Shown: positions 3-48,142 of the stretch, piece by piece
Layout of the letters: every line of letters starts with the position of its first letter
Numbering within the stretch: position 1 is the first letter of the stretch
From: a virus
Taxonomy: Duplodnaviria > Caudoviricetes
Strand: one strand, 5' to 3'
Virus record (IMG/VR): IMGVR_UViG_3300037454_000078
Coordinates: 17,435 to 81,434 of that record
DNA length: 64,000 nucleotides
Made by a program: the position numbers and the translations under genes
Notes under the pieces: generated by a model
What the model saw: only the letters and a program-made list of their open reading frames with translations
Told to the model about the DNA's origin: nothing
Databases searched by the model: none

Positions 3-3000
3 TTGGACGACATTGCATACAAAATGCAAAGACTTCAAGCATATAGACAAGGAATCGACTTGACTAAGCCAGGAGCCGAGAACGAGATAAAGCAGGTTGA
101 CGACAAACTGAAAGAACTGCAAAGGGACGCTGACAAGTGGATTTCTAAGTCTAAAGAAATTGAAAATCGCAACAACGCTCTTGGGCGCTCGTGGAACTAC
201 ATGAAGAACCGTCTTGCGTTCTACTTTACAGTAGGAGCAAGCACAGCGTTCATAAAGAACTTGATTGAGATACGCTCCCAGTACGAGATGAACGAGCGTG
301 CCCTTGGAATTCTCATCAACTCTGCAGAAAGAGGAACGCAAATATTCAAGGAGCTGTCAGACATGGCTCTCGTTTCCCCATACACGCTTATCGAACTGTC
401 AAACGCAGCGAAACAGTTGACCGCATACGACATCGCAGCAAAGAACGTTGTCGACACGACAAGACGTCTTGCTGACATGGCTTCTGCCGTCGGTGTTCCA
501 ATGGAACGTCTGACATACGCACTTGGTCAGATTAAGGCTTACGGCTATCTGAACAGCCGAGATGCCCGTATGTTCGCAAACGCAGGTATCCCTCTTGTCC
601 GCGAATTGTCAAAGTACTATACGGAACTTGAAGGTAAAATCGTTAGCGTGGGGGATGTGTACGACAGGATGAAGAAGAAGTCCATCGACTACAACGACGT
701 AATGGCTGTCGTTACAAAGATGACAGACGAAGGAGGCAAGTTCTTTGACTTCCAAGCAAAGATGGCAGACACACTGAAAGTGCGTCTTGCCAACCTGACT
801 CTTGCGTGGAACAACATGCTGAACGAAATAGGGGCATCAGAGCAGGGGGTTCTTACAACAGGAATAGGCATGCTGAAAGACTTCTTCTTGCACTGGAAGG
901 ACATAGAAGAAATCATCAGGAAAGTTGTATACGCGTTCGGATTGTTCAAAGCGGCTCAGATGATAACTCTTGCATTTATGGGAGAGTTGAACACGGCAAT
1001 GGGAATGCAGGTACTGCTTGGCACTAAACTTCAGACAAAGCTTGCTGCATTGACTTCTAGCACAAAAGCTTTGTCAGTTGGATTGTCTGCGTTCGGAATG
1101 GCATTTTGGGCTATTCTTGCAGACGCTTATGTTACATACAGCAGAAACGCTGAAGAAATAGAGAGACTTAACAAAACCATTGCAGATGGAGCAAAAGAAG
1201 CGTCCGAAGCCCTTGACAAAATGCTGCATTCTTCAGAAATGGTAAGCTCAAGAATGTCTGCAATGCAAGGAAAACTCTCAGCAACAGACGCAGCAAAGAC
1301 TTGGGAAGCGCTGCGTGAACAGATAGAGTTGTCCGCAATATCTTCAAAGAGCGTTGTTGCAGAAATCGTTGAAGAGATACAAAAAAACGGTTTTGACAGA
1401 GGAATAGAAAAAGCTTTCGGTTTTGCAGAAAGCATTCAAAAAGTCACAAGCAAACTGAGCGACCTGAACGACAAGCTTCAAATAACTCAAGATGAAATGC
1501 TGGGAGGGCTGTTTGGTGAAGGTGTCGTTGAGGATATTGAGGATTACAACGAAAGGTTAAAATACGAAGCCGAACTTGCAGAATGGGCTGCAAACAAGAA
1601 TAGCGGATTCTGGGAAAACGCTGTAATGGGACTTAAAGGTCTGTTCCATTCTGTAAAAGAAGACCTTGGAAGTTCAAAGGAAGAAGCAGAGAAAGAAATA
1701 AAGAAGTTTGCTGAAGACGCTGCACAGGTCATTAAAGACGAACTTGGAGAGGAGGGCTTGAAAGACAAAATTCAAGTAAATGAAGCCATTGCTCGCGTTC
1801 TTCAGGGGTTCGAACAGATGTATCCTCAGATACGTGGGAAGGGGAAAGTCTTGTTTGAGACACTGTTCAACGAAACGATGGCAAAAGAGTTTGAGGGTTC
1901 TGTAGACAAACAAGCATATTATTATGAGAAATTCTTGGAGCAACTCAAGAAAGACCACGGAAGTGCTTTTAATGAAGTTACTGACGAAATACTCAAAGAC
2001 ACGCACAAGTGGTCTTCCTCGCAATTGGACGCCATACAGAAAACTGCAGATAAAGTCAGAAAAGACCTTCCAGAAGCTTCGCAAGATGCAATTGACAAAA
2101 TCCTAAGACAACTCAATTCTACAGAGTTCAAAGTTCGAATTGTCGCAGAGATGGCCACAACTTCCGTTGATGAAGTACAAAGACAATTCAACGAGAAATT
2201 CATTAAGAAGCCTGGGATTGAAGACCAGAAAGAAAGAGAGAAGGCTGAGGCTGAGGCTGCTCAGAAATACGGTACTCTTAGGCGTAAATCAACAGAGAGC
2301 AATGTCGAGTACGAAAAGCGAATCAGCGACGAACGAAATAAACAGTTTGAGTTGTCTCAAAAGAACGCAGATATTATATCTGCAAACAAAAGCAAACAAG
2401 ACGAATACTCAAAGGCAGTAGTAAAAGACGCTGAAAACGCAAAGGCTGCAGCAGACGCGTGGCTGAAAGCTGCTGACGAAGTCGAAAAGGCTGGTGGATA
2501 TGACTTCAGTACAAAGAGCGAGCGTTCTGCTGCGTCGAAAGCTCAGAAAGCTGCAGAGTCAGAGCTTCAGAAAGCGTTGAAGGAAGAGATAAAGCTTATT
2601 GACGAAGCGACGAACATGTATAAGAAGATGACGGATTCTGGAATCAACAGGACAACCGCACTCACTTACATCACCAACAAGTTCGGAGACTCAATCGAGC
2701 ATATCAACAGTGTTCTTGGTAAGAACAATATACCAAAGTTCGACATAAGAAGGTTTGCTGGAACAGATGACCCGCATAAGCTCCTTCAGATGCTTGAGGA
2801 GCAGAGAGCTGCTGCAAAACTGTCAAGGAACGTAAAGCCAGAAGAAATCAGCGAACTGCAGATAAAATACGACAAGGTTGATGTTGATGCAAAAGTCTTT
2901 GATGCTACAAAGATTACAAAAGGCTTGAACAACGAGCTCGGACACCTGAAGGACGAGTACGAGCTTGCTGTGGAGCTTGACGCCAATCCAGAGTTCGGCA

Positions 3001-8061: not shown

Positions 8062-8767
8062 AGTTGTTGTTGTTATTTTTATTCTTAGACCATGTCGTGC
8101 AGGCTGCTTTCCAGCTCTTCATAGGATTACGGCCTACTTTCCATCCGTTGCTCTCATAATGTGCAAAGAAGGCTTCCGCATCGAACGTATAGCCCTTCTC
8201 GTTGATGTAAGCCTGTATTTCGTCAACGGTAGGCTTAACAAATCGTTTCTCTTTCTTTATAGAAGACACGTTAGTGTCTGATATTTCTTTAATATTATCT
8301 TTCTTTTCCTTTCTTCTAGATAGTTGTTCATTTTGTTGTTCATTTTGTTGTTCATCATCAACAGTGCCACTCATACTTAAATCATTGATTTCCAACGTGT
8401 TCTGTTGTTCATTTTGTTGTTCAATTACTAAGTATTTCTTGATGGTTATAATATTAATCAGCTTACTCGTTGTCTGTTCGATGATTCCAGACGAAAGAAG
8501 TTCTGACAAGAACTTGCGTACAGTATTCCTGCTCCACTGCCACTTTTCTGCGAGGTTTGCTTCTGATATAGCAATCTCGTATGGTTTCAGCGTAACCTTG
8601 ATGCCTCTCACAAAAAATTCGCGCTCCTTATATGCAGCTTGGAAACAAAGGTCTATAAACGCCTGAGCACGAGTAAACCTCTCTGACGAGAAGAAGTCCT
8701 CGTCATAAAGCCCTCTATCCAACTTTATAAAACCCTTATTCAACTTGTAGCAGTCTTTAAAAGCCAA
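7940..8767 (-). CDS. Phage replication initiator (replisome organiser, lambda O-like architecture), TTG start
   Basis: N-terminal FIKLDR...wHTH (LAEKWQWSRNTVRKFL), central repeat linker, C-terminal FVKPTVDEI...HYESNGWKVG..PMKSWKAA domain. Confidence 0.8.
   Translation of the reverse strand: MAFKDCYKLNKGFIKLDRGLYDEDFFSSERFTRAQAFIDLCFQAAYKEREFFVRGIKVTLKPYEIAISEANLAEKWQWSRNTVRKFLSELLSSGIIEQTTSKLINIITIKKYLVIEQQNEQQNTLEINDLSMSGTVDDEQQNEQQNEQLSRRKEKKDNIKEISDTNVSSIKKEKRFVKPTVDEIQAYINEKGYTFDAEAFFAHYESNGWKVGRNPMKSWKAACTTWSKNKNNNNNYGRETATEKVGRTIAEADSFMERLFGNIGEPADMGGGDKE
8323..8423. repeat. Iteron-like 12-bp repeats (GTTGTTCATTTT) inside initiator gene
   Basis: GTTGTTCA core at 8323, 8335, 8347, 8404 and 8416; adjacent AT/pyrimidine tract 8281-8320. 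Confidence 0.7.
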
Positions 8768-8878
8768 ACAAGCGGTTCTACTCTTCAGCTGCTACTCCGA
8801 ATTTCGAACCGCCTGTTGTGGCAAGTTGTTATAACATTTATGTCTCCATCGCTTTATCACCTATAGTAGCAGACGGCG
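8767..8878 (-). promoter_or_regulatory. Structured 5' leader of initiator with complementary hairpin loops
   Basis: Loop CUGCUACU (8865-8872) is the exact complement of loop AGUAGCAG (8789-8796); 12-bp stem 8767-8778/8806-8817 reaches the start codon. Confidence 0.65.
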
Positions 8879-8909
8879 TTCAAGCGTGCGATTTCAATGA
8901 ATCACGGTG

Positions 8910-46838: not shown

Positions 46839-46878
46839 GCCGCCAGACTTATTTTAATGGTCTTTGGCGGCTTTTCTT
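46839..46878 (+). terminator. Intrinsic terminator
   Basis: GCCGCCA.../...TGGCGGC followed by TTTTCTT. Confidence 0.7.
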
Positions 46879-46962
46879 ATGCTTTCCTTGATAGTTGTCC
46901 ACCGAACAAAAGAAGTGTGCTTAAAACGGCTTATTTGCAATTTACTAATTATTCTTAATACA

Positions 46963-46994
46963 TTTGGAAGTTTCAAACTTTATTCGTATCTTTG
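46963..46994 (+). promoter_or_regulatory. Bacteroidetes promoter for HNH gene
   Basis: TTTG-N20-TATCTTTG. Confidence 0.8.
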
Positions 46995-47008
46995 CAACAT
47001 CAAACAAT

Positions 47009-47104
47009 GGTATGTACGAGATACCGAATGTTTAAGACTTATTGCTCCTTGTTAGTAAGATATGCTCGTACCATATCTGAACACTTGGAGCACTTTTTAT
47101 TTTT
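47009..47104 (+). promoter_or_regulatory. Structured leader with complementary hairpin loops
   Basis: GGTAT-GTACGAG-ATACC and AGATATG-CTCGTAC-CATATCT inside TGCTCC/GGAGCA plus U-tract. Confidence 0.7.
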
Positions 47105-47746
47105 ATGGAACAGGAAATTTGGAAAGATGTTAAAGGTTTTGAAGGTTTTTATGAAATAAGCAATTTTGGTAGGGTCAAGTCTTTGGAAAGAACCTACAAG
47201 ACAAGGAATAATAAAACGTGGCACGTCGGGGAAAAAATCTTGAAGATAGTACCGTTTCACGGTTATCCTGCTGTTGTGCTTAGTAAAAATAGCGTTTGTA
47301 GAAGATATGCTATTCACAGATTGATTGCAGAAGCATTTATACCCAACCCAGAAAACAAGCCTTTTATAGACCATATTAACACGAATACAATGGATTACGG
47401 ATTGTCTAATTTGAGATGGGTAACTGCAAAAGAGAACTGTAACAACCCAATAACAAGAAGTAGAAATAAAATAAATCCGCACACTAAAGAAGTAAAAGAA
47501 AAAAGACTCAATACTCGTATAATCCATAGGACTGCAAGTTCACCAAATCGTGTCTATCAGTACACAAAAGATTTAGTATTTGTTGCATCTTATGTTTCAA
47601 TAGCAGAAGCATCGAGACAAACAAATATATCAGAAGGGTGTATAAGGGTCGCAAGAGACAGTTCATACATCAAAGATGGTAAGGAGTTTCTCAAAACTGG
47701 TGGAGGGTTTGTTTGGAAATCTGCATTGATAGAGCCTAACAAGTAG
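47105..47746 (+). CDS. NUMOD4-HNH homing endonuclease
   Basis: EIWKDVKGFEGFYEISNFGRVKS; IHRLIAEAFIPNPENKPFIDHINT...NLRWVTAKENCNN; AT-rich. Confidence 0.92.
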   Translation: MEQEIWKDVKGFEGFYEISNFGRVKSLERTYKTRNNKTWHVGEKILKIVPFHGYPAVVLSKNSVCRRYAIHRLIAEAFIPNPENKPFIDHINTNTMDYGLSNLRWVTAKENCNNPITRSRNKINPHTKEVKEKRLNTRIIHRTASSPNRVYQYTKDLVFVASYVSIAEASRQTNISEGCIRVARDSSYIKDGKEFLKTGGGFVWKSALIEPNK

Positions 47747-47749
47747 GCT

Positions 47750-48142
47750 CTATCTGCAAGGCTCTCCAACCAATTCAACGATTTCTTTTGTCATAAAGCC
47801 GACCAAATACGCACTTGGTTCTCCATGCCAACTTTCGCCGTACCAATCCAAGATAGAATCGGCGACATGAATACACTCATGTATTGCCGTTGAATAAAAT
47901 TCGCTTGGGGAGGTAGATTTGCTTATGTATATTGCTGACATCTTCAAGTCTGGCACTGAAACAGCCATTCCTGTGTTGTATTTGGAAAGAATGCTTAGTG
48001 CTTTGTCTGCGCTCTTTGACGATAGACCAAAACTCCTAAGTTGTGCTTTTAGTTCAACGTATTCTTCGTCTACATCAAAGTCCGTAACCACAACGATGCC
48101 CCATGTTCCTTTTGGTGGTATTCCAAAATAGTGCTGTTCCAT
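47750..48142 (-). CDS. Small HExxH (zincin-like) protein
   Basis: AIHECIHVA...GEPSAYLVG. Confidence 0.7.
   Translation of the reverse strand: MEQHYFGIPPKGTWGIVVVTDFDVDEEYVELKAQLRSFGLSSKSADKALSILSKYNTGMAVSVPDLKMSAIYISKSTSPSEFYSTAIHECIHVADSILDWYGESWHGEPSAYLVGFMTKEIVELVGEPCR

Follow-up and report, generated by a model that had tools for sequence, protein, structure and literature searches.

Does the DNA between a phage homing-endonuclease gene and its promoter encode a structured RNA, and what would such an RNA do to the expression of the gene? The question is raised by a 64,000-nucleotide stretch of viral DNA (hereafter the window), in which a first-pass annotation had described two hairpins with complementary 7-nt loops in front of the gene, the second hairpin being nested in an outer stem that is followed by a run of U residues. 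All of these elements were found where the annotation had placed them (Table 1), and the leader that they compose is present in this rumen phage in a single copy.

Layout of the leader locus

Table 1. Predicted features of the nuclease leader and of its surroundings (window coordinates; L1 and L2, loops of hairpins 1 and 2)
Feature	Position	Strand	Details
Intrinsic terminator of the upstream operon	46839-46878	+	GCCGCCAGAC / GTCTTTGGCGGC followed by a U-run; hairpin energy -17 kcal/mol
Cassette left junction	46929-46941		first copy of GGCTnTATnTGCAA, an imperfect direct repeat of ~13 nt; second copy at 47746-47761
Cassette promoter, Bacteroidota-type	46963-46994	+	-33 TTTG, 46963-46966; -7 box TATCTTTG, 46987-46994
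Hairpin 1	47009-47025	+	stem GGTAT/ATACC, 47009-47013 with 47021-47025; loop L1 GUACGAG (GTACGAG in DNA), 47014-47020
Kissing helix	47014-47020 (L1) with 47065-47071 (L2)	+	seven Watson-Crick pairs
Single-stranded linker	47026-47042	+	17 nt; purine-rich core AAGACUUAU; family consensus roughly RGAAAYAUA (alignments A5, A6, A7)
Long bipartite hairpin	47043-47092	+	outer stem, 2-bp helix, internal loop and hairpin 2
Outer stem	47043-47048 with 47087-47092	+	TGCTCC/GGAGCA
2-bp helix inside the outer stem	47051-47052 with 47083-47084	+	
Internal loop	47053-47057 opposite 47079-47082	+	UAGUA opposite GAAC
Hairpin 2	47058-47078	+	stem AGATATG/CATATCT, 47058-47064 with 47072-47078; loop L2 CUCGUAC (CTCGTAC in DNA), 47065-47071
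U-run	47094-47104	+	UUUUUAUUUUU; begins 1 nt past the outer stem and runs up to the start codon
Start codon (ATG) of the nuclease gene	47105	+	
Free-standing homing-endonuclease gene	47105-47746	+	213 aa; NUMOD4, HNH_3 and NUMOD1 (Pfam)

In the minimum free energy (MFE) fold of the window leader both hairpins and the outer stem are formed, with a z-score of only -1.6. The energy of the long hairpin is -16.8 kcal/mol, and that of the duplex between L1 and L2 is -8.5 kcal/mol (-8.5 to -10.7 kcal/mol across the copies for which it was computed). First-order Markov simulations of the window, in which both strands were considered, yielded by chance about 1.0 twin hairpin with loops complementary over at least 7 nt per 64 kb, so the observation made in a single sequence is not significant alone.

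The nuclease gene was also said to have its own promoter behind an upstream terminator, and both are indeed present in the window. The terminator, whose architecture is kept in relatives with different stem sequences, insulates the cassette. From the position of the Bacteroidota-type promoter the transcript is predicted to start near 47000. The -33 box sits in a near-palindrome, TTGGAAGTTTCAA (46964-46976), which reads TTGGAAGTTCCAA in relatives and is one base shorter than the TTGGAATATTCCAA palindrome. Through this TTGGAATATTCCAA-like sequence the cassette may be wired into the middle-gene regulon of the phage.

The heptamer of loop 1, GTACGAG, occurs 18 times in the window on both strands, compared with 6.6 expected occurrences, a number reached in none of 100 shuffles. 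Same-strand pairs of this heptamer, about 62 nt apart, are found inside coding regions (10531/10592 and 51117/51180).

Homologous leaders and compensatory changes

Homologs of the leader were gathered from contigs of rumen and gut phages. The first of them (L083) was retrieved with the exact sequence of hairpin 1, and an 18-mer taken from the linker, and thus blind to the loops and stems, retrieved about 20 more from metagenomes. A covariance model added diverged members located before other HNH genes (L005/L208 and L243). The final pattern was fixed only on the frame AGUAGG..UGCU....CCA....YYGAA, with the loop core left free. It gave 23 matches, and in 21 of these the exact reverse complement of loop 2 was found 36-39 nt upstream, the remaining two being chance hits without a promoter. 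With the covariance model R2 run over those contigs and genomes, the total came to 36 distinct leaders.

No homolog of the leader was found by blastn and tblastn among GenBank (cultured) phages, and at three HNH loci of Bacteroides and Parabacteroides phages (L204-L206) the gene is preceded by a plain terminator, with twin hairpins absent. The downstream gene, used as a query, retrieved only a contig with an empty site. Another 18-mer, GTTGTCCACCGAACAAAA, was tried as an upstream anchor and abandoned, as it mostly matched an unrelated conserved element. About 73 small viral contigs in IMG/VR (L085-L158) that match GTTGTCCACCGAACAAAA share this highly conserved element of ~100 nt (...CTAGACAGGCTCCCATGGGCTACTTGCCC...GTGGGGGACACAAACC...), at the start of which the 18-mer lies. 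It has the look of structured non-coding sequence from a different group of viruses.

Across the leaders, compensatory changes were seen in each of the four helices. In alignment A6 (36 sequences, 33 distinct rows) 94.2% of the cells are paired and 28 of the 33 pairs changed on both sides. None of 500 shuffles reached the observed values of pairing and covariation, and in controls with slid partners pairing fell to 35-46%. The kissing helix is the best-supported of the four, with 99.6% of cells paired and covariation at six of its seven pairs. The loops are complementary at all seven positions in 35 of the 36 leaders, which use 11 different 7-nt codes, including GUACGAG, GGUCGAG, GUUGCAG, GUGAGAG and AUGACGG. 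This support was not built in by the method, because pseudoknots were absent from the covariance model, which cannot represent them, and the loop core was unconstrained in the pattern scan. A lack of covariation between the loops in homologs, named beforehand as an observation that would speak against the proposed element, was therefore not seen, and the terminator-like stem with its U-run, the other part of the proposal, is present in all 35 copies measured.

Covarying loop-loop pairs are accompanied by covariation in both hairpin stems, as in a kissing-loop complex. Double changes are found in the stem of hairpin 1 of the relatives, where changes from U-A to U.G wobbles fit only a plus-strand RNA, and compensatory changes in the outer stem and in the stem of hairpin 2. 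The structure is assigned to the plus-strand RNA, since the G.U pairs present at many stem positions would correspond to A.C mismatches in the complementary strand. A reading of the region as a DNA-level palindrome or operator was rejected for the same reason. Judging from these alignments, the segment 47000-47104 is a real folded 5′ leader RNA, with two loops that pair with each other.

The layout of the leader is conserved as well, and four lineages independently give the same MFE architecture. L1 and L2 start 48-52 nt apart in 35/35 copies measured, and the linker between the two hairpins has 15-17 nt, with a purine-rich core that is kept in all lineages. In the internal loop beneath hairpin 2, AGUA stands opposite GAA in 35/35 leaders, a sequence signature from which we infer a loop-E / sarcin-ricin (bulged-G) / S-turn motif. 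A run of at least four U residues starts 21-26 nt after L2, i.e. 0-5 nt past the outer stem, in 35/35 copies measured, and it keeps this position also in copies whose AUG is found more than 20 nt farther downstream. The lineage L005/L208a, in which a U5 run begins 5 nt past the stem, has a weaker terminator signature.

Several other pairings were considered and rejected. A P0 helix (47002-47006 with 47029-47033) is weakly supported and falls partly outside the transcript in other lineages. A long-range duplex that extends beyond the seven loop bases can be drawn in the window and is not kept in L083, and an anti-terminator pairing of the linker CUUAUU with AGUAAG is, by inspection, not conserved in other lineages.

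A mobile promoter-leader module

An alignment with a relative that has an empty site (L159/L203) revealed the same terminator and flanks without the promoter, the leader and the HNH gene. As these are absent together, leader and gene can be regarded as one cassette of ~815 bp, covering roughly 46935-47757 and bounded by the imperfect direct repeat of Table 1. At the empty site (L203:2840-3050) the related phage carries a single copy-like version of the direct repeat. The cassette is separated from the bidirectional terminator by a stretch of ~50 nt (46880-46930; GCTTTCCTTGATAGTTGTCCACCGAACAAAAGAA...) that is strongly conserved among relatives, the phage with the empty site being one of them. 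This stretch could be the 3′ UTR of the convergent operon or a homing-site region.

Of the 36 leaders, 35 have a TAnnTTTG -7 box whose end lies 4-16 nt upstream of hairpin 1, and an endonuclease gene, intact or decayed, was identified behind 34 of the 36. Three classes of nucleases are represented, i.e. NUMOD4-HNH, HNH proteins of PHROG 374/953 and endonuclease VII-like proteins. In L299 the leader is followed by a 69-aa ORF with no family match, while at L315:2965 the ORF after the leader runs off the locus at 17 residues and was left out of the family scan. At L307:7790-8040 all that remains of the HNH endonuclease behind the leader is its C-terminal, NUMOD-like DNA-binding part. This is a decayed homing-endonuclease gene that retains its leader.

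The leader is ~93% identical between phages that share 36-55% identity in their HNH proteins and no more than 67% in their backbone DNA. In relatives L177, L192, L167 and L195 the product of the downstream gene is 94-98% identical to that of the window, whereas the HNH protein encoded at the same site shows 36-50% identity, with conserved N-terminal (MEQEIWK) and C-terminal (KRIEP) ends. The near-constant flanking gene beside a divergent HNH protein indicates that the nuclease reading frame has apparently been swapped, and suggests that this occurred between a constant promoter-leader module and a constant right flank. This portable module stands before three nuclease classes, and its conservation far exceeds that of the genes it would control, so the question of how selfish nucleases stay harmless becomes directly testable.

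Relation to known RNAs and probable control of the nuclease

Screening with cmscan gave no relevant Rfam match, either at the gathering threshold over the whole window or at E values up to 10 over 46850-47200, where the only matches, mir-9449 and AfaR, are at chance level. A relationship to c4-type RNAs, which the annotation had considered, did not survive this screen, as C4 was not matched at E values up to 10 over 46850-47200. The c4 RNA of P1/P7 and the CI RNA of P4 are likewise small phage RNAs that use short complementary seeds, but as repressors they act in trans, on separate target sites, and the nuclease leader has no such sites outside itself. A c4 antisense RNA was rejected on both grounds. 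Twin hairpins with complementary loops behind a phage promoter are also present in the leader of the replication-initiator gene of the window (8765-8880). The two leaders are unrelated in sequence, as had been claimed, but the topology that they were said to share was not borne out: the nuclease leader lacks a third complementary site at the start codon, where no match of at least 6 nt to L1 or L2 was found in five representatives of four lineages.

A close architectural parallel is the guanidine-IV riboswitch (mepA motif), in which the loop of a 5′ hairpin kisses the loop of a terminator hairpin with a poly-U tail and controls read-through (PMC11611296). There, formation of the kiss is a steric obstacle to closing the full terminator stem, and linker length governs this competition (PMC11611296). 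Two kissing hairpins, the second of which is part of a terminator-like stem, likewise occur in the 36 leaders. However, the guanidine-IV kiss needs guanidine and conserved loop nucleotides, whereas that of the nuclease leader consists of seven Watson-Crick pairs in 11 interchangeable codes. The nuclease leader differs further in its additional AGUA/GAA internal loop, in the absence of an Rfam match and in its genetic context, i.e. homing endonucleases of Bacteroidota phages instead of guanidine exporter and detoxification genes. Guanidine-II (mini-ykkC) was rejected, since conserved ACGR tetraloops are expected in it, while the loops found here have 7 nt, are variable and in most codes lack ACGR.

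Loop-loop pairing of this length is known from plasmids. RNA I and RNA II of ColE1 form kissing complexes through fully complementary 7-nt loops, and in pT181-type plasmids kissing decides whether the leader terminator forms. The partners in ColE1, pT181 and pIP501 are antisense transcripts of the opposite strand that act in trans, whereas both loops described here lie on one sense RNA. Two mutually complementary loops of a single RNA, covarying among related phages, are present in the pRNA of phi29. In that case, however, the pairing comprises 4 nt, takes place between molecules and builds a packaging ring, and the RNA, which has no terminator, is not an mRNA leader.

Homing-endonuclease genes of the T4 family (I-TevI/II/III, segB and mobE of Aeh1) are also preceded by leader RNA structures, which restrain their expression (PMC2988022). 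These hairpins hide the Shine-Dalgarno site and also contain a late promoter (PMC2988022). The nuclease leader resembles these in being an RNA structure before a selfish nuclease gene, within a cassette that has its own promoter, but it does not work by hiding a ribosome-binding site, as no helix includes the start codon: the AUG is at least 12 nt past the last pair, and the promoter is upstream of the whole fold. To our knowledge, Bacteroidota hosts do not rely on Shine-Dalgarno pairing, so the T4 solution would not be open to their phages.

The long hairpin is directly followed by the U-run and therefore reads as an intrinsic terminator; this signature, a stable stem (-16.8 kcal/mol) and then a U-run, was found in 35/35 copies. 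Most probably, though with considerable reservation, the leader is a cis-acting intrinsic terminator that is modulated by the kissing loops and gates expression of the nuclease. Placed between the cassette promoter and the start codon, such a terminator would cause transcripts from this promoter either to stop at the U-run or to read through into the nuclease gene. The ratio of the two outcomes would be set by the kissing interaction, and synthesis of the nuclease would be kept low and independent of the neighbouring operons. Both termination at the U-run and its modulation by the kiss are what we infer from the conserved layout. As to the direction of the effect, by analogy with guanidine-IV an anti-terminator role of the kiss appears at least as plausible as a pro-termination one, given the taut linker: its 15-17 nt must span ~30 stacked pairs, which makes antagonism between the kiss and the outer stem plausible. 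A plain terminator would suffice to limit expression, and the additional presence of a kiss, a conserved linker and an AGUA/GAA loop suggests that the leader does more than attenuate passively. In a bovine gut metatranscriptome we found a 151-nt contig identical to 47090-47240, spanning the U-run and the start codon, which, with assembled contigs and patchy cover, is indistinguishable from DNA carry-over.

Other readings of the same structure were weighed against this terminator. L1 and L2 of one molecule can pair equally well with another molecule of the same code, and the differing codes of copies in one genome hint at interaction in trans. Five contigs carry several leaders (4, 4, 3, 2 and 2), and all codes differ inside each of them; moreover, leaders that share 87% identity outside the loops differ in code. 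A self-addressed riboregulator would account for these observations as follows. With the terminator stem closed, the short linker, which by our reasoning barely spans the stacked helices, could not hold the kiss; terminated RNAs of the same or of co-resident genomes would then expose L1 and L2 and bind nascent leaders of the same code, driving these to terminate as well and so feeding back on read-through, or forming dimers with them. The loop sequence would be the private address of each nuclease gene. If this were true, each selfish nuclease gene would have a sense-strand feedback dependent on copy number, and diversification of the loop codes would free co-resident nuclease genes from control by one another. 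Against this, the distinctness of codes within a genome is only suggestive and of doubtful significance, which depends on the null (P = 0.33 when codes are permuted within the multi-copy pool, 0.02 against the pooled frequencies), and the intramolecular kiss is kinetically favoured; we consider such a switch unlikely. The conserved unpaired nucleotides (RGAAAYAUA in the linker, AGUA/GAA) could alternatively make up a binding pocket, and a small molecule or protein bound there would stabilise or break the kiss. Across lineages, unpaired positions are conserved to the same degree as paired ones, and the topology is that of the guanidine-IV riboswitch (PMC11611296). However, seven Watson-Crick pairs (-8.5 to -10.7 kcal/mol) should form free of ligand, the loops, in which guanidine-IV has its ligand site, are free to vary in this family, no riboswitch of Rfam was matched, and the genes concerned are selfish nucleases, related neither to metabolism nor to transport, all of which makes a sensor very unlikely.

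Two further readings concern translation. In many copies the stem and the AUG are separated by a near-constant 12-14 nt, a spacing compatible with a translational role as well, in which a rigid kissing-loop domain hinders or positions the Bacteroidota 30S subunit and the U-rich stretch before the AUG could serve translation initiation as a ribosome landing site. Translation is the step at which the T4 homing nucleases are controlled (PMC2988022), and at the Firmicutes-type HNH loci L245, L247, L273 and L283 loop 1 complements the Shine-Dalgarno sequence in loop 2. Yet the U-run tracks the stem and not the AUG where the two are separated (L299, L290), the AUG and its flank lie outside every conserved helix, and the third complementary site near the start codon is absent, so that we hold this reading to be distinctly unlikely, if less so than a sensor. 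The leader might itself be translated, since a 50-codon frame (ATG 47007 to TAA 47159) passes through the fold and could be coupled to the nuclease start or gate it. All window-type copies with the CAATGG context keep this frame open and have its ATG 7 nt ahead of L1; L160 lacks it. In 16 of the 36 leaders, however, no open frame runs through the fold, most of the open frames have no ATG, and the substitutions are compensatory for RNA pairing without a synonymous pattern; a translated leader is accordingly the most improbable of these explanations, with hardly any weight left to it.

Full-text searches found no description of such a leader in the literature. The general kind, a structured attenuator or gate, is already known; the leader-RNA family is new. 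As judged from the comparisons presented here, it is an undescribed family of structured leaders on free-standing homing-endonuclease genes of rumen and gut Bacteroidota phages, with unusually clean covariation and a 7-bp kissing helix in at least 11 interchangeable codes. It is also the first regulatory RNA design that our literature search found for homing-endonuclease genes of Bacteroidota phages. As natural orthogonal kissing codes on one scaffold, the loops are of possible use in RNA engineering.

Different structured leaders were observed before other HNH genes. The Firmicutes-type NUMOD4-HNH loci mentioned above carry a different twin hairpin ~20-60 nt before the HNH start, and their loop 1 (CUCCAAU, CCCAAAU, CCUUUAU or CUUACUC) exactly complements 7 nt of the loop 2 that bears the Shine-Dalgarno sequence; a loop match of at least 7 nt was found in 0 of 383 control regions. 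In two other IMG/VR phages (L003 and L004, ~2900-3000) the HNH gene is preceded by a terminator-like GCGCGG/CCGCGC stem with a U-run, which encloses an inner hairpin with GCCGATA. Two copies of TATCGGC lie downstream, and alternative pairings between them and GCCGATA are possible.
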